From positions 10,630 to 74,629 of the forward strand of contig CAWGRQ010000013.1 of assembly GCA_963824985.1 (NCBI GenBank): 64,000 nucleotides of DNA. The letters are read 5' to 3'. This document shows, piece after piece, positions 5,422 to 10,653 of this stretch; position 1 is the stretch's first letter; every line of letters starts with the position of its first letter. The notes below the pieces were generated by a model. It worked only from the letters and a program-made list of their open reading frames with translations, did not search any database and had not been told where the DNA came from. The position numbers and the translations under genes were made by a program. Source of the DNA: Terriglobia bacterium (GTDB lineage: Bacteria > Acidobacteriota > UBA6911).

Positions 5422-7026
5422 GTGATGATCTGGGGCAAAAAGAGAAGACAGGTGAATGATCCGGTATCCGGCCCGCCGCCTCAGTCTCCCGGCCTTATGG
5501 TCCCATCTCCCGCGACCCAGGCATGGACGATCGCAAAGATCGAACTGCGGCGCGCCTTCTTTTCCAAACGCGCCTTCTGGGTTTATGGGCTGGCCCTGTT
5601 TCCGGCGGTGATCTTCTTCGGGCACGGCATCGAGATCAAAATCCGGCGCGATCGCCTGGCGGCAGGAGGCATTACCCCGGCGGCTCTGATCGACAGTGCC
5701 CGGGAGGGGGAATCGATCGATGAGGTGCTGAAGCGCCTCGGCCGACCCTCTCGCGACAACCGGTGGGAAACGCGCAGGCGGATCCGTGCCCAGGGGGAAG
5801 TGACCGGCGTAACCAATAATGTCATCGACCCTCCGGCCGAGGCCAGGTTTGTCCGGCTGAACATCACCCGCCCGAGCTATAGCGGCGAGCCGACCGCAAG
5901 GATATACGAGTTTGAAATTTACGGTCCCGGCCATCCCGGCAACCTGGCCCTGCGCCGTCCGGCAACCGGCAGCGTCCCCTGCTCGGACGCCCAGGGACCC
6001 GAAAAAGCGTTCAACGGCAGTGTCGCCGGGGGTACGGACGACTGCTGGTGCACGCACGAATGGGACCGATTCCTTCAGGTGGACCTCGGATCCGTGATGA
6101 AGGTGCAGCGCTTCATCGTCAAGCATGCCAGCGCCGGCGGCGAGAGCAGTGAATCCGACACGCGCGAGTTTAACATTCAGGTCAGCCCCGATGGCAGGCA
6201 ATTCTCGACGGTCGCGAACGTAACCGGCGCCCGGTTCGTGGACGAACGTGTGGCCTGGCGCGAGCTGGTTTATTTCGACGGGCGCGCTGAGAAGCGGCTC
6301 CAGTTTTCGGATGGTAAACTCAAATCCAAGCAGGTGCGTGAGTTGTTGAATTTCGAAGAGGACCGCCAGATCTTTGCCGGAGTTTTTCAGTATTTCTATC
6401 TGCGCCTTGCGATTTTCTTCGGCTGCCTCGGCATTTTCATGAACCTGTTCCGCGGTGAGATGCTGGATAAGACGCTGCATTTCTGGTTTTTGGCCCCCTC
6501 GCGGCGCGAGGTGCTTTTGGCCGGCAAATATGGCGCCGGCCTGATCTCGTCCACCATCATCTTCGCCGGCGGGGCGCTCCTCTGCTTTGCCATGATGCTG
6601 TGGCCGCACGACCCGGTCCAGGTGCAGGCTTATTGGCAGAGTTCGGGCATGGGGCACGCCTTCTGGTACACGGTGGCAGCCGTGCTGGGCTGCGTCGGCT
6701 ATGGGAGCGTCTTCCTGGCTGCCGGTCTTTTGCTGCGCAATCCGATCATCCCGGCGGCGGTCCTGCTTGGATGGGAAAGCATCAACGGATTTCTGCCGGA
6801 GATTCTGCAGAAACTGAGTGTGCTCTACTACCTCCAATCGCTGTGCCCGGTTCCGGCCCCCACCGACAAAGGCGCCCCGGCTCTGATTCAATTGCTGCTG
6901 TCCCCTGCCGCCCCGGCCTCGCGCCTCGGCGCCATCGTGGGCCTGCTGGTGGTGACCGCGCTGGTGCTCTGGGTGGCATGTCTTGCCATCCGCCGCATGC
7001 AGATCTCATACGGCACCGAAGCCTGA
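5422..7026 (+). CDS. ABC-2-like membrane protein with a ~250-aa extracytoplasmic insert carrying F5/8 type C (discoidin/CBM32-like) signatures
   Basis: 534-aa ORF. N-terminal TM helix FWVYGLALFPAVIFFGHGI, then ARFVRLNITRPSYSGEPTARIYEFEIYG and NLALRRPATGS...AFNGSVAGG..W..LQVDLGSVMKVQRFIVKH...FNIQVSPDGRQFSTV, then multiple C-terminal TM helices. Confidence 0.7.
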   Translation: MMIWGKKRRQVNDPVSGPPPQSPGLMVPSPATQAWTIAKIELRRAFFSKRAFWVYGLALFPAVIFFGHGIEIKIRRDRLAAGGITPAALIDSAREGESIDEVLKRLGRPSRDNRWETRRRIRAQGEVTGVTNNVIDPPAEARFVRLNITRPSYSGEPTARIYEFEIYGPGHPGNLALRRPATGSVPCSDAQGPEKAFNGSVAGGTDDCWCTHEWDRFLQVDLGSVMKVQRFIVKHASAGGESSESDTREFNIQVSPDGRQFSTVANVTGARFVDERVAWRELVYFDGRAEKRLQFSDGKLKSKQVRELLNFEEDRQIFAGVFQYFYLRLAIFFGCLGIFMNLFRGEMLDKTLHFWFLAPSRREVLLAGKYGAGLISSTIIFAGGALLCFAMMLWPHDPVQVQAYWQSSGMGHAFWYTVAAVLGCVGYGSVFLAAGLLLRNPIIPAAVLLGWESINGFLPEILQKLSVLYYLQSLCPVPAPTDKGAPALIQLLLSPAAPASRLGAIVGLLVVTALVLWVACLAIRRMQISYGTEA

Positions 7027-7063
7027 CTTTCTCCCAAGAAAATTCCGGAAAATTCGGTAGATA

Positions 7064-7444
7064 ATGCAGAAGGCGTTTGATGCTGCTCTGCAGATTGCGG
7101 TACGGTTCGAGGTCGATCTCCACATGGTCAGCGTTGAGGAATACCTGCCGCGGTTTGCCCAGACCGTCGAAGAGGTCAGGGGAGAAAAGGAAATAGCGGA
7201 CGACTACTTCGAGCCCCTCGCCGAACAGTGCCGGCGTCGCGCTGCCCTCAAGGGCAAGACGCTCCATACCGACATCATCGTCGGCCACGGGGTGAAAGCC
7301 ATCGTCGAATTCGTCCGTCAAGGCGGTTACAACCTTCTCGTGGTCGGCTTCACGGGACACTCAAGGATCTATGACCACATCTGGGGAGGGACTTCCCAAA
7401 ACATCACCCGTTTCGCACCCTGCGCCGTGCTGGTCGTCAAATAG
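7064..7444 (+). CDS. universal stress protein (UspA family), apparently lacking the first beta-strand
   Basis: 126-aa ORF ending LLVVGFTGHSRIYDHIWGGTSQNITRFAPCAVLVVK (USP C-terminal ATP-binding motif). An in-frame TAG sits 2 codons upstream of the ATG, so the usual N-terminal ILVavDgS segment is absent. Confidence 0.65.
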   Translation: MQKAFDAALQIAVRFEVDLHMVSVEEYLPRFAQTVEEVRGEKEIADDYFEPLAEQCRRRAALKGKTLHTDIIVGHGVKAIVEFVRQGGYNLLVVGFTGHSRIYDHIWGGTSQNITRFAPCAVLVVK

Positions 7445-7506
7445 AATCCTCGGCCGGACGTACAGGGGAGAGGAGAAGTGGCGGCAGCGTCAAACGTCAG
7501 CCGGCG

Positions 7507-7794
7507 TAATTGTTTAGCCAAATCAAATGGATGAAGAAGCAAAACGCAAAGACGCAAAGACGCAAGGGCGCAAAGATCGACTGAGCAACGGGCGTGGGCG
7601 CAGCGCTTCGCGCTGGCGCATCCTTGGGCGAGCCGCGGGAGAAAGCGCGGGCAGCGGCTACTCAGGAGGATTGCGCTTTCTCCCGCGGCTCGCCCAAGGA
7701 TGCGGCCGAAGGCCGCCCATGCCCGCGAACCGAAAGGAATCTCTTTGCGTCCTTGCGTCTTAGCGTTCTGCTGTTCAGCATCGGCTAAACAGAT
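7507..7794. repeat. MITE-like nested palindromic element (family B, CGCAAAG-repeat arms)
   Basis: Terminal inverted TGTTTAGCC (7511-7519) and GGCTAAACA (7783-7791). Arms are tandem ACGCAAAG-like units (7541-7577) against CTTTGCGT-like units (7738-7770). Perfect 31-bp inner inverted repeat at 7618-7648 / 7673-7703. Flanked by an 11-bp direct repeat GTCAGCCGGCG (7496-7506 and 7795-7805). Confidence 0.8.
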
Positions 7795-7795
7795 G

Positions 7796-8503
7796 TCAGC
7801 CGGCGCGTCCCGCATTCCTCAGCACCGACGCCATCTTGTCAGCGATTTCTTTCGGCAGGCCGCTTGCATGCAGGCGCGCGACGGCACTCTCGACATCGTA
7901 CCGAGTGCGTTTCAATGTGACCTCGCCGTTCTGCCAGATCGCCAGGCAGGCGCGCGGATCGCCATCCACCGGCATACCCAGGCTGCCGGGATTTACCACC
8001 ATGAGCCGGCCGACTCGCCGGACGAACGGCTTGTGCCTGTGACCCAGGAAAAGCCACTCCTCTTTTTCGGCTAACGCACCTACTGCTTCAAGCTATTCCG
8101 ACTCCGGGGCGTCGCCGCACAGGTACTCATAGGTTGGATCGCGCGGCGTCGCATGCACGAGATGGAATCGCGTTCCCGATTCTTCAATTGTGAGCGCGCT
8201 AGGCAGTGATCCGAGGTAGGTCATGGCTTCGGCGCTCAATCGCGGCCGGAAATGCTCTCGGGTGGCAACAGAAAGCGCGTAGGAAATCGGTGAGCTGCGG
8301 CAATTCGCCCCCGTTGCCATAGCCAGATCATGATTGCCGCTGACGGCAATTGCACCCAGTCCTTGCACCTGACGGACAACCTCTTCAGGCGCCGCGCCGT
8401 AATCGACCAGGTCCCCCAGGACGAGCAACCCGTCATAGGGCTCATCGATTGATTCAAAGGCGTCGGTATTGGCGTGAATATCGGTGAGGATCAAGTAACG
8501 CAT
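7796..8503 (-). pseudogene. calcineurin-like metallophosphoesterase (YfcE/MJ0936-like) interrupted by an in-frame TAG
   Basis: The ORFs 8093-8503 (MRYLILTDIHAN...LGDLVDYG...SGNHD) and 7796-8002 (MVVNPGSLGMPVDGDPRA...) are in the same frame. The 30 codons between them read LEAVGALAEKEEWLFLGHRHKPFVRRVGRL (GHxH motif). The only break is a TAG at 8093-8095. Confidence 0.8.
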
Positions 8504-9204
8504 GCACTCCTCCTGCGGTTCCGCTCCACCAGTGGCCGGAGGATGCGCATGGGAATGACAAACCAGAGCAAATCCGTGTTGAACATGAAGAGGGTTCCGG
8601 TCGCAACATGCGGAATGCGTACCTTGCCGACCTCGATGTCGAATGGCTCAACCGAAAAGTGAACCGCCAGCGCCCGCTCGATATTCCCGGCCAGGCGATC
8701 CCGAAAGCCTTGAACGGCGCGCGTCAGCGTGGCCCGGGCCTTCTCCAGAGGGACGCAGAATAATTCGCCCTCTCTGAAGGAGATACCGGTCATTTCGCGG
8801 CGCATCGATTCTTCGAGCCACTGCTCGTAGGCGCGGCTGAGCTTCCAGAGATTCGCTTTCAGCCCGGACAGCTTCGCCTGAATCTCACGTGTAACGCGCC
8901 CCTCAACTTCCGGGAAGATCTCTCCCATGCGCTTCATGACCCAGGGACGGGTCTGGCCGGCGCTCTCGCGCGTCAACGCCTGCAACTCCATTCGGATTGA
9001 TTCAAAGCTCGTTTTCTCATTGAGAACCTGGCTCTTGAGATCCGAGCGGTTCGCGTCGGCACGATCTGCGGCTGCCAGCGCCAGCGAGAGGTAGTCGCTC
9101 GTGCGCTCCATCAGCGTCTTGAACTTCTTCTGAATGGCCTGAAGACGGCCGACAACAGCGGAGAGCGGAGGATTGGATTCAACTGTGATCTGGGCTTCGG
9201 CCAT
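8491..9204 (-). CDS. hypothetical helical protein (237 aa) with a hydrophobic C-terminal segment; first gene downstream of the fluoride riboswitch
   Basis: Long ORF with no competing frame. The ATG at 9204 (MAEAQITVES...) was chosen because the ORF-track TTG at 9258 lies inside the terminator U-tract. The C-terminus LLWFVIPMRILRPLVER overlaps the phosphoesterase start by 13 nt. No family recognised with certainty. Confidence 0.6.
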   Translation of the reverse strand: MAEAQITVESNPPLSAVVGRLQAIQKKFKTLMERTSDYLSLALAAADRADANRSDLKSQVLNEKTSFESIRMELQALTRESAGQTRPWVMKRMGEIFPEVEGRVTREIQAKLSGLKANLWKLSRAYEQWLEESMRREMTGISFREGELFCVPLEKARATLTRAVQGFRDRLAGNIERALAVHFSVEPFDIEVGKVRIPHVATGTLFMFNTDLLWFVIPMRILRPLVERNRRRSACVT

Positions 9205-9255
9205 GATCGAGAACCCATGGTTTCGACTTCGATCGGTTATCCGACAGGGGCCATG

Positions 9256-9291
9256 CAAAAAACCCCGCCCGGGAATCCCCTGGGCGGGGTT
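9256..9291 (-). terminator. intrinsic terminator (expression platform of the riboswitch)
   Basis: Minus strand AACCCCGCCC-AGGGGAUUCCC-GGGCGGGGUU followed by UUUUUU. 10-bp GC-rich stem, about 50 nt upstream of the ATG at 9204. Confidence 0.7.
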
Positions 9292-9335
9292 CTTATGGAT
9301 CCATGCTTTAACTCCTACCCAGGCCTTTTCTCGAG

Positions 9336-9384
9336 GTAGGAGTTATCAGGCCAGATACGGCCGGTTATGGCGAACTCCATCGCC
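9336..9384 (-). promoter_or_regulatory. fluoride riboswitch aptamer (crcB RNA motif)
   Basis: Minus strand GGCGAUGGAGUUCGCCAUAACCGGCCGUAUCUGGCCUGAUAACUCCUAC. It has a P1 GGCGA/UCGCC, an AUAAC linker, a short hairpin GGCC-GUAUCU-GGCC, and a pseudoknot GGAG...CUCC followed by terminal CCUAC. It is near-identical in layout to fluoride aptamers as I recall them. Confidence 0.75.
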
Positions 9385-9390
9385 AGCACA

Positions 9391-9419
9391 ATCCTACCAA
9401 TGCTTGAATTCGGAAACAA
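9391..9419 (-). promoter_or_regulatory. candidate sigma70-type promoter for the riboswitch leader
   Basis: Minus strand TTGTTT, 17 nt spacer, TAGGAT. The -10 ends 6 nt before the first G of the aptamer. Weak match to consensus. Confidence 0.3.
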
Positions 9420-9524
9420 GCCACTTCCGCCCGCAAGATCCGGTGAACGATGGCGTTCTCCGCGATGATCTGTGGCAGACTCTTTCGGCCGAGCTGTAAC
9501 CGGCGCGGGACTTCCAAAAAAAAC

Positions 9525-9556
9525 GCCACGGATCACAGATTGCACAGATTCAAAAA
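9525..9556. repeat. degenerate fragment of the CCACGGAT-type repeat (family A)
   Basis: GCCACGGATCACAGATTGCACAGATTCAAAAAG: tandem CACAGATT x2 followed by CAAAAAG, resembling the left arm of the 14.4-kb and 40.1-kb elements. Confidence 0.3.
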
Positions 9557-9904
9557 GCCTGGCAGTTTCTTGAAGATCTGTATCCGAGACAAATGCGCGG
9601 GTATGGAGAGATGGATCCGGCGGCGGGAGGGGATCTTACCTGGGTGCTTCAGGAGGTCCGGAGGCTAGCGGAGCCCGGGAGAAACGCCTCTCCCGGATCC
9701 AGGCCGAACCTGCACTCGCTCGCCAGCTCGAGCGATTGTCTCAGATCATTGCGCGTCACGGACTGGTCGAGTACCTTCCCGCCTTGGATTCGATAATTCG
9801 AAAGCTCGAATCTCATCGTTTCGAGATAGCGGTCTTCGGTCGGCTCGCGGACGGGTGGGGAGGCGGGGCGGAGCTGAGTTCACCATCGATCGGGTCCATG
9901 GCCC

Positions 9905-10130
9905 ATGCTCTACGGCAGAGAGAGGGATATCCGGAATCTGGTAGCAAACTTGCGGCACGGAGTGCACACCCTCGTCTTCGGCGCACCAGGCTCCGGTAAG
10001 AGCGCCCTGCTCCAGGAATCTGCCCGTCTTCTCTCCTCGAATCAAGCATCAGAACGGCTCGTCGCTTACGTGGGGGACTGCGGCTCCCGCAAGGTCTTAC
10101 TCAGAATCTTCTTAATCAGAAATAGCGCGG
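9905..10130 (+). pseudogene. N-terminal fragment of a P-loop (AAA-type) ATPase, truncated
   Basis: YGRERDIRNLVANLRHGVHTLVFGAPGSGKSALLQESARLL (Walker A). The frame then runs into the 3' end of the convergent, clearly coding 10150-10653 gene and loses protein-like character. Confidence 0.4.
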
Positions 10131-10149
10131 ATTGGTTCGCGCCCCATTC

Positions 10150-10653
10150 TCATTTCTTCACTGCGAAGGAAAAGTGCTGCTGTGCCATGACCCATCGGCC
10201 GCCCCGTTTCTCGAGAACGCCCGACCAGCGGGTGTCTTCCCAGTTCGCCGGCTGGCCCTTCCATTCATTGATGTCGTCCAGGAGGCAGAAGAACCAGGCT
10301 ACGTCCCCGGATCTGGAGATCTTGATTTTGAGGTCCCGTAGTTCGTACCGGACGGCCTTGAAATCAGGGCTGCTCCAGATAGTCTCCGCCTTTTTGAATT
10401 CCTCGAAACCCCTGACGACCGCGCCGTCAGGGTGCACCTCGAGAAAGTCCGGATCGTTGGCGATCACGCCGTACAGGAGCCGGAAGTCCTTGGTTTTGGC
10501 CCAGCCGATGCAATCCCGGATCGACTGTTCAATCTGCTTCAGTTCGTCGCCGCCGGACCTGTATGAGTTGCCGGCCGGGCCCCATGCGGCGAAGAAAAGG
10601 AGCGTCATGGCTATACCGAGACAGATAACTATGATGGAAATAGGCCTTTTCAT
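10150..10653 (-). CDS. SnoaL-like/DUF4440-type (NTF2-fold) protein with N-terminal signal/anchor
   Basis: 167-aa ORF. N-terminal MKRPISIIVICLGIAMTLLFFAA. Body ...IEQSIRDCIGWAKTKDFRLLYGVIANDPDFL...DVAWFFCLLDDINEWKGQPANWEDTRWSGVLEKRGGRWVMAQQHFS, typical of the NTF2-like fold. Confidence 0.7.
   Translation of the reverse strand: MKRPISIIVICLGIAMTLLFFAAWGPAGNSYRSGGDELKQIEQSIRDCIGWAKTKDFRLLYGVIANDPDFLEVHPDGAVVRGFEEFKKAETIWSSPDFKAVRYELRDLKIKISRSGDVAWFFCLLDDINEWKGQPANWEDTRWSGVLEKRGGRWVMAQQHFSFAVKK

Follow-up and report, generated by a model that had tools for sequence, protein, structure and literature searches.

A fluoride riboswitch ahead of a truncated dynamin-like gene: a probable eroded remnant of a fluoride-response island in Acidobacteriota

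Fluoride riboswitches switch downstream genes on as fluoride rises, and fluoride toxicity is usually put down to enzyme inhibition, countered by export. What does such a riboswitch control when no exporter gene follows it? The question is raised by a 64,000-nucleotide (nt) stretch from a Terriglobia bacterium of the phylum Acidobacteriota (GCA_963824985.1, contig CAWGRQ010000013.1, positions 10,630 to 74,629; hereafter the window), in which a fluoride riboswitch precedes an open reading frame (ORF) of 237 amino acids and a calcineurin-like metallophosphoesterase (MPE) frame. A preliminary description of this sequence had proposed that the pair may form an undescribed fluoride-responsive module. 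Our comparison with homologous loci indicates that the locus is probably the eroded remnant of a fluoride-response island which is intact in other Acidobacteriota and which encodes full-length dynamin-like proteins (DLPs).

The riboswitch call itself held up well. RF01734 was the sole Rfam match at the gathering threshold in the window, and the apparently intact aptamer (9330..9393, minus strand) covered model positions 1-64 of 64 with 49.8 bits against a gathering score of 34 (cmscan, E = 8.2e-11). The expression platform occupies 9257..9345 on the same strand and consists of a hairpin at about 9345-9309, in which the 3′ strand of the aptamer pairs with GGUAGGAGUUA, followed by an intrinsic terminator at 9294-9257 with a GC-rich stem (CCCCGCCC/GGGCGGGG, 9289-9263) and a U6 run at 9262-9257. 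RNA folding of the 161-nt leader (9400..9240, minus strand) gave a minimum free energy of -75.5 kcal/mol (z = -4.44), equalled by none of 200 shuffles, and the block comprising aptamer and terminator (9400-9258) was conserved with the related loci L006, L007, and L009 in blastn. The ATG of the first gene lies at 9204, 52 nt 3′ of the U-run, in agreement with the roughly 50 nt reported earlier. Judged from its sequence, this copy of RF01734 is a standard member of its class and, by analogy with that class, transcription at the locus probably continues to respond to fluoride.

The cargo is not a classical fluoride exporter, as the preliminary description had recognized, and consists of the remnant of a DLP gene (DLP1) and the MPE. 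A tblastn search of the 64-kb window with three CrcB queries reached a best E-value of 0.057, and the only ORFs with at least three transmembrane segments at the stricter threshold were two ABC-2-like permeases and SecY. No small ORF with four transmembrane segments and no multi-transmembrane ORF of CLC size occurred in the 64 kb, so that the reported absence of crcB and CLC genes stands, for CLC on the transmembrane scan only.

We then asked what the 237-amino-acid ORF (8491..9204, minus strand), which contains the hydrophobic stretch LLWFVIPMRIL, encodes. The earlier impression that it could not be placed was accurate as far as domain databases go, since Pfam and NCBIfam assigned it to no family and returned noise alone (Syntaxin, E = 0.3; LysB, E = 0.09), but the ORF does not represent a new family. 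Among 5.8 billion protein clusters it had 16 relatives, all metagenomic and all pieces of longer dynamin-like proteins, with Dynamin_N/MMR_HSR1 domains on the N-terminal pieces. In tblastn, window positions 9147-8518 corresponded to residues 272-481 of the full-length DLP1 from our reference locus L006, located on a complete 6.9-Mb chromosome (OY761556.1), at 63 % identity; the faint resemblance to the stalk/paddle part of bacterial dynamins, ventured in the preliminary description as a guess, was therefore correct. The first 28 amino acids scored 22.1 bits against the N-terminal profile of the family, a value that none of 2000 shuffles reached (best shuffle, 6.6 bits), which indicates that the authentic start was kept and that an in-frame deletion took out residues ~29-280. 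The two sides of this deletion meet between IQ(E/K)K(Y/F) and QFKF. At the 3′ end, homology stops after LLWFVIPMRILRPLVERN, and the frame then crosses the ribosome-binding site of the MPE (AGGAGG) into an unrelated 8-residue tail, RRRSACVT. The ORF thus comprises codons 1-28, the stalk helices with the hydrophobic tip (L006 residues ~272-481), and the novel tail, while the whole GTPase domain (~residues 29-280) and the last ~75 residues of the 558-567-amino-acid proteins are absent. Neither Pfam nor the alignment to full-length relatives revealed a dynamin-type GTPase domain with the G1-G4 motifs in it, and for this reason we call it a DLP remnant rather than a DLP. On the sequence evidence, it derives from a dynamin-like GTPase by two deletions and is not a free-standing family.

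A scan of one genome per GTDB species yielded seven loci, all from metagenome-assembled genomes (MAGs) of Acidobacteriota, and full-length DLP1 measured 558-581 amino acids in the genome loci. The full-length protein matched Dynamin_N (PF00350) at E = 5e-21, the G1, G3, and G4 residues (GxxxxGKS, DxPG, TKxD) were invariant across 34 family members, and the family profile retrieved Campylobacter jejuni DLP2/DLP1, Nostoc BDLP, and IniA from the PDB (E = 2e-20 to 6e-15). In its AlphaFold (AF2) model, with a predicted local distance difference test (pLDDT) score of 84, the GTPase domain spans residues 50-245; long helices (246-430) then lead to a hydrophobic tip that is not helical (431-469) and includes FMFNTDLLWFVIPM, and from there further helices run back (470-556). 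Foldseek searches with this model placed IniA (1e-18), BDLP (2e-17), and the C. jejuni DLP among the best matches. Taken together, the sequence and the predicted fold identify DLP1 as a bacterial dynamin-like GTPase of the IniA/BDLP type.

The window ORF keeps both of the most conserved stalk/tip motifs of this family, NLW.LSRA and FMFNTDLLWF. It is itself predicted to form long helices (AF2, pLDDT 75.6). In the full-length model, a hydrophobic stretch outside the helices, NLFMFNTDLLWFVIPM (mean Kyte-Doolittle 1.37), forms the end of the stalk; helices 470-556, which close the bundle there, are absent from the window ORF. A Foldseek search with the AF2 model of the fragment alone, a check suggested in the preliminary description, returned nothing below E = 1. 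A structure search on the fragment would therefore have missed its identity, which was found by sequence homology to the full-length proteins. Beyond the close relatives, a broader clade shared 38-46 % identity with the full-length query at the same length, and some of its members, including one from Thermodesulfobacteriota, are annotated as "dynamin family protein". A profile built from the stalk only matched 502 representatives (50 % clustering) among 1.84 billion proteins, 165 of them at E <= 1e-30, and the full-length matches were nearly all 535-580 amino acids long. These matches and their uniform length point to a discrete DLP subfamily.

The second gene of the cargo, the MPE (7796..8503, minus strand; 235 codons), is a pseudogene. 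Its frame matched Metallophos_2 at E = 9e-19 (68.4 bits against a cut-off of 27) and Metallophos at 41.3 bits (cut-off 21.5), and the metal-binding motifs DxH, GD, GNHD, and GHxH are present (as DIH, GD, GNHD, and GHRH in the translation). The identification as a metallophosphoesterase was therefore sound, but the frame is interrupted by one internal stop, an in-frame TAG at 8093-8095 (codon 136), so that the MPE as written is a 136-amino-acid fragment and not an intact enzyme. The lesion is a TGG-to-TAG change and replaces a Trp that is kept in all five orthologues (L006, L014, L023, L028, and L039; 233-237 amino acids, 60-70 % identity). Window positions 8502-7811 correspond to the MPE block of the intact loci at 68 % identity (blastn/tblastn), and together with 9400-9258 and 9147-8518 they make up three blocks collinear with those loci. 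The closest solved relatives, which share the metal-binding motifs, are the uncharacterised metallophosphoesterase 3RQZ (E = 5e-23) and archaeal 1NNW/2GJU, of a YfcE/MJ0936-like branch of PF12850. These structures have no known substrate and, unlike them, the window copy is cut by a stop; its score against the YfcE model TIGR00040 was 43 bits, below the cut-off of 56.25.

The start of the MPE at 8503 overlaps the 237-amino-acid ORF by 13 nt, as described earlier and taken there to suggest translational coupling. The overlap exists, but most relatives are arranged differently: an enolase gene, with or without an MFS gene, lies there between DLP1 and the MPE, and both are absent from the window. 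Because the DLP1 frame ends in the novel RRRSACVT tail, the overlap is most simply read as a deletion scar.

Do intact counterparts of this locus retain the riboswitch? The loci were picked by protein homology and not by the riboswitch, and the result is therefore unbiased in this respect. RF01734 was found directly upstream of DLP1 in 23/23 close-clade loci with a visible 5′ flank (3 metagenome contigs, 6 genome loci, and 14 metagenome loci, some of them near-duplicate contigs); outside this set are six further loci without the 5′ end of the gene and L012, an eroded locus without a riboswitch. A second dynamin gene, DLP2, likewise had a separate riboswitch ahead of it in every locus that shows the 5′ end of DLP2, enolase lay 3′ of DLP1 in ~20 loci, and the MPE shared an operon with DLP1 in L006, L014, L023, and L028. 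In L006, a riboswitch followed by DLP2 and a small P-loop ATPase points one way, a riboswitch followed by DUF190, a Na/H exchanger, and USP points the other way, and a third unit reads riboswitch, DLP1, enolase, MFS, and MPE.

In the broader clade, where six distinct loci at 40-45 % identity were sampled, the riboswitch was directly upstream of the DLP in four (L031, L032, L033/34, and L035/36). The operon in L035/36 continues with a riboswitch-controlled ATPase and then a riboswitch-controlled crcB-DUF190 pair. In L039, a riboswitch heads the series crcB, DUF190, DUF190, DMT_6, DLP, and MPE; in L037, the DLP ends a string of Na/H exchanger, USP, enolase, and ATPase genes whose head lies off the locus. 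An MPE of 233-237 amino acids and of the same subfamily recurs in the fluoride operons of L006, L014, L023, L028, and L039. The preliminary description had named a lack of any riboswitch association among homologues, combined with an ORF that is not conserved or expressed, as one outcome that would undo its proposal; the association proved instead to be recurrent. The module that it envisaged does occur in these relatives, as full-length DLPs accompanied by enolase, MFS, MPE, and ATPase, but in the window it is eroded.

Erosion in the window extends to the other arm of the island, where two fragments had been missed by the preliminary description. With tblastn of the L006, L008, and L010 proteins, we mapped a DLP2 remnant to 9569..9855 on the plus strand (~97-207 of 552-695 residues), with residues 97-133 encoded at 9569-9670 and, in a different frame, residues 139-207 at 9661-9855 (E = 1e-25 to 1e-33); blastn supported this assignment. 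The riboswitch of DLP2, the 5′ end of the gene, and the parts encoding the GTPase domain and the stalk are missing, and an Rfam search of 7000-10300 found no second RF01734 upstream of the remnant, even a degenerate one, at E <= 10. The same approach placed a remnant of the small P-loop ATPase (AAA_16/AAA_22/STAND-like) at 9905..10102 on the plus strand (residues 1-63, E = 1e-13 to 1e-17). Homology covers only the first ~63 of ~230 residues, and the remainder of the nominal 270-amino-acid ATPase ORF overlaps an unrelated minus-strand ORF (10150..10653). At least six separate lesions of differing kinds thus fall within ~3 kb. The remaining ~60 kb of the window carries long intact genes, including a ribosomal-protein/SecY operon, which indicates that the damage is local.

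We propose that in an intact island fluoride riboswitches would drive two divergent operons, one consisting of DLP1 and enolase, with or without MFS and the 233-237-amino-acid MPE, and the other of DLP2 and the small P-loop ATPase. From the known action of the riboswitch class, fluoride bound to the aptamer would be expected to block termination and so to induce both DLPs. These may bind the inner membrane through the hydrophobic stalk tip seen in the model and could use GTP hydrolysis for tethering, resealing, or remodelling where fluoride or hydrogen fluoride (HF) stresses the membrane. Such stress would be especially relevant in acidic peat and soil, the habitat of many of these MAGs. Phosphoesterases with a binuclear metal centre are sensitive to fluoride, and AlF4-/MgF3- complexes trap P-loop GTPases. 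The neighbouring genes might replace fluoride-inhibited enzymes, namely enolase and probably a binuclear-metal phosphoesterase, and adjust ion balance, while the DLPs might alternatively be induced to compensate or buffer the inhibition of GTPases by fluoride-metal complexes. We tentatively favour membrane maintenance, without considering it established, and regard buffering of GTPase inhibition as rather doubtful. In previous studies, bacterial DLPs were found mostly as gene pairs within operons (PMC6104087) and were linked to stress-induced membrane tethering, fission, fusion, or surveillance (PMC6104087, PMC6715688, PMC8844932). Fluoride riboswitches are known to control USP and enolase, an enzyme that fluoride inhibits and of which fluoride operons contain extra copies (PMC5533749), and fluoride causes lysis in some bacteria (PMC12700350).

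In the window, the aptamer and terminator would have survived, whereas DLP1 would have lost its GTPase domain in frame together with its C-terminal helices, the enolase and MFS genes would have disappeared, the MPE would have acquired its Trp-to-stop change, DLP2 and the ATPase would have been cut down to short fragments, and the riboswitch of DLP2 would have gone. With no GTPase domain, an incomplete helical bundle, a cut MPE, and fragmentary partners, the remaining cargo is most likely non-functional, as far as can be read from the genes themselves.

Several points weigh against an eroded island. The riboswitch itself shows no sign of decay and the 237-codon frame is still open. Nonsynonymous divergence (dN) of the ORF from intact orthologues (0.19-0.34) was not above the inter-clade value (0.19-0.22), and synonymous divergence (dS) was saturated in these comparisons; the decay would therefore have to be recent, or the fragment still constrained. 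We had considered dN/dS as a test of relaxed selection on the remnant and set it aside as uninformative, with dS saturated and dN not raised. The nonsense codon in the MPE differs from the Trp codon by one G-to-A substitution, for which a sequencing error could be responsible, and the contig is metagenome-derived. The distant relative L039 has a DLP followed directly by an overlapping MPE, which leaves the ancestral order uncertain, as well as whether ~0.2 or ~2.8 kb was lost at the 3′ end. Finally, the membrane-repair role of the intact DLPs is one that we infer only.

Could the trimmed protein still be at work? The stalk/tip protein might be induced by fluoride and bind membranes, for example as a scaffold or to modulate other DLPs. 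Its translation would be coupled to that of an MPE in which the TAG either results from a sequencing error or allows read-through, which is essentially the model of the preliminary description. This explanation draws on the open frame with its authentic start, the two retained motifs, the predicted long helices, the intact riboswitch and terminator, a Shine-Dalgarno-like AGGAGG before the ATG of the MPE, the natural overlapping DLP-MPE pair in L039, and the fact that no excess of dN is detectable where dS is saturated. We nevertheless consider it unlikely. The ORF is a singleton, forming a one-member cluster among the 5.8 billion clusters, and no other GTPase-less version of the same architecture was found. 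The helices that would pack against the retained ones (470-556) are missing, an unrelated tail closes the frame, and independent lesions in the MPE, DLP2, and ATPase within 3 kb fit an island that is no longer under selection as a whole.

An assembly or sequencing artefact is more improbable still. The island would then be complete in the organism itself, and mis-assembly or errors in the metagenome would account for the deletions, the frameshift, and the stop. The metagenome-type source of the 85.9-kb contig and the fragmentary gene versions in other metagenome assemblies (frameshifts in L005, the incomplete genes of L001 and L002, and protein P0016) would be compatible with it, but errors of this kind would have had to produce at least six lesions of differing kinds in ~3 kb beside ~60 kb of long intact ORFs. 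Moreover, the deletion junctions are not at repeats prone to assembly collapse, one deletion is exactly in frame with the start preserved, and a similarly eroded island is present in the independent MAG L012. Anti-phage defence of an Eleos/LeoABC-like or DynA-like type, with the DLP and ATPase genes merely lying beside fluoride genes, is the least credible explanation: DynA-type DLPs do protect against phage (PMC8844932), the small ATPase has STAND/AAA_16-like features, and PADLOC gave weak LeoA matches (E = 5e-7 and 2e-8), but these matches of the intact DLP1 and DLP2 cover ~60-90 residues around the P-loop at 27-32 bits, PADLOC returned no full-length LeoA/LeoBC match and none at all for the window ORF, the riboswitches lie directly upstream, enolase, crcB, DUF190, Na/H exchangers, and USP are co-operonic in many unrelated contigs, and in L035/L036 the ATPase gene is under a separate fluoride riboswitch, so that we rejected the defence reading as one resting on P-loop-level similarity.

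We next compared the islands with characterized systems. The best Foldseek match of the DLP1 model (~590 columns) was IniA of the mycobacterial iniBAC operon (PDB 6J72/6J73; PMC6715688), which likewise has ~600 amino acids, a GTPase domain, a helical neck and trunk, a membrane-interacting tip, and a stress-induced gene. Identity is, however, ~17 %, and IniA is induced by drug treatment and not by a fluoride riboswitch; the window copy differs further in having no GTPase domain at all. Among PDB profile matches, C. jejuni DLP1/DLP2 (5OWV/5OXF; PMC6104087) and Nostoc BDLP (2J68/2J69) ranked best (2e-20, 4e-19, and 6e-17). The heterotypic C. jejuni pair resembles the pairing of DLP1 and DLP2 in intact islands, where by contrast the two genes stand in divergent operons with a riboswitch each and DLP2 carries an N-terminal extension of ~190 amino acids and is followed by the small P-loop ATPase. 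A fluoride link is not known for the C. jejuni and Nostoc proteins.

The Enterobacter cloacae FRM operon ppaC-uspA-eno-gpmA-crcB-orf5249 (PMC5533749) places many genes under a single fluoride riboswitch and shares with the islands an extra copy of a fluoride-inhibited enzyme (enolase) and a stress protein (USP). It differs in containing crcB and a pyrophosphatase, in lacking a dynamin-like GTPase, an MPE, and a P-loop ATPase, and in having been validated experimentally. For the proposed mechanism, Bacillus subtilis DynA (PMC8844932), which acts in membrane surveillance and repair under stress, offers a functional analogy, although DynA is a two-headed fusion without riboswitch control and responds to pore-forming antibiotics and phage.

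At the level of the family, the evidence seems to us evenly balanced on whether DLPs of ~535-580 amino acids constitute a core, hitherto unrecognised effector of fluoride riboswitches in Acidobacteriota, Thermodesulfobacteriota, and other lineages. According to this proposal, the DLPs would usually have a second DLP and the small P-loop ATPase as partners in Acidobacteriota, and in several lineages would share operons with enolase, crcB, DUF190, Na/H exchangers, USP, and a conserved 235-amino-acid MPE. Physiological roles of bacterial dynamins are poorly defined. If the proposal is true, a physiological trigger would be defined for bacterial dynamins, with a simple chemical as its inducer, and fluoride/HF toxicity would have a membrane-damage component countered by dynamin-driven remodelling. 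The window copy, as a genomic fossil, would be of modest interest alone: a riboswitch outliving its cargo, with deletions having removed both GTPase domains. Its value would be that of a pointer to one DLP family under fluoride-riboswitch control almost everywhere sampled. The riboswitch-dynamin link offers a testable hypothesis with a cheap inducer, NaF, and the dynamins, the P-loop ATPase, and the conserved MPE subfamily become candidate fluoride-response proteins. The dynamin-like cargo class appears to be new: full-text searches found no literature linking fluoride riboswitches to dynamin-like proteins, although an earlier mention in the gene-association table of the 2012 Science paper is possible, and the 2010 description of the crcB motif (PMC2864571) makes no such link. 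A literature search likewise found no paper on the fluoride riboswitch together with DUF190.

Several further features of the related loci were recorded. Eroded DLP versions occur elsewhere: L012 (4700-6309) retains only DLP2 residues 1-143 and DLP1 residues 447-549, with the riboswitch absent; L001 (1355-2614) and L002 (1927-3186) lack DLP1 residues ~252-404 and are split into two ORFs; the DLP gene of L005 (937-2609) has two frameshifts; and P0016 fuses an N-terminal GTPase part to the tip motif. This pattern suggests recurrent gene loss, or assembly problems. Fluoride riboswitches were unusually dense in Acidobacteriota and in one unclassified lineage, with 55 RF01734 matches in ~290 kb of related loci and three within 2.5-3 kb in L006 (2805-5382), L013 (1300-3911), L009 (1857-4359), and L035 (4913-7540). 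The small P-loop ATPase (~210-235 amino acids), with weak AAA_16/AAA_22/NB-ARC/STAND similarity, recurs beside DLPs in the fluoride operons of L006 (2-691, minus strand), L010 (1147-1851, minus strand), L035 (6736-7362, plus strand), L037 (2680-3387, plus strand), and L033 (11192-11674, plus strand), and matched no characterised family.

In L032, an nhaA-I (Na+) riboswitch (RF03057, 8118-8171, 51.6 bits) precedes a Na_H_antiport_1 gene immediately downstream of an operon consisting of a fluoride riboswitch, a DLP, and MFS, so that two ion-sensing riboswitches adjoin. DUF6062 genes adjoin the DLP in L031 (6772-7512) and L037 (4279-4977), unrelated contigs from the distant clade, and may add another uncharacterised component to the fluoride regulon. 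In the fluoride island of L014, a group II intron domain (RF00029, 4215-4289, minus strand) that scored 40.4 bits, at the gathering score, follows shortly after the MPE.

Within the window, a gene with a USP domain (7064-7444, plus strand; E = 1e-15) starts at position 16 of the Pfam profile, with the usual N-terminal strand missing, and is 27 % identical to the USP of intact fluoride islands, which would fit either a further truncated gene or an unrelated paralogue. We left it out of the operon in view of its convergent orientation, this low identity, and a large inverted repeat between it and the MPE. This nested repeat (7538-7772) lies between the end of the convergent USP gene at 7444 and that of the MPE at 7796. 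Its inner arms are perfect over 32 nt (7617-7648 and 7673-7704), are separated by a 24-nt loop, and are unique in the window, while its outer arms of 25-28 nt are rich in GCAAAGAC repeats. The element could be a bidirectional terminator or an insert resembling a miniature inverted-repeat transposable element.

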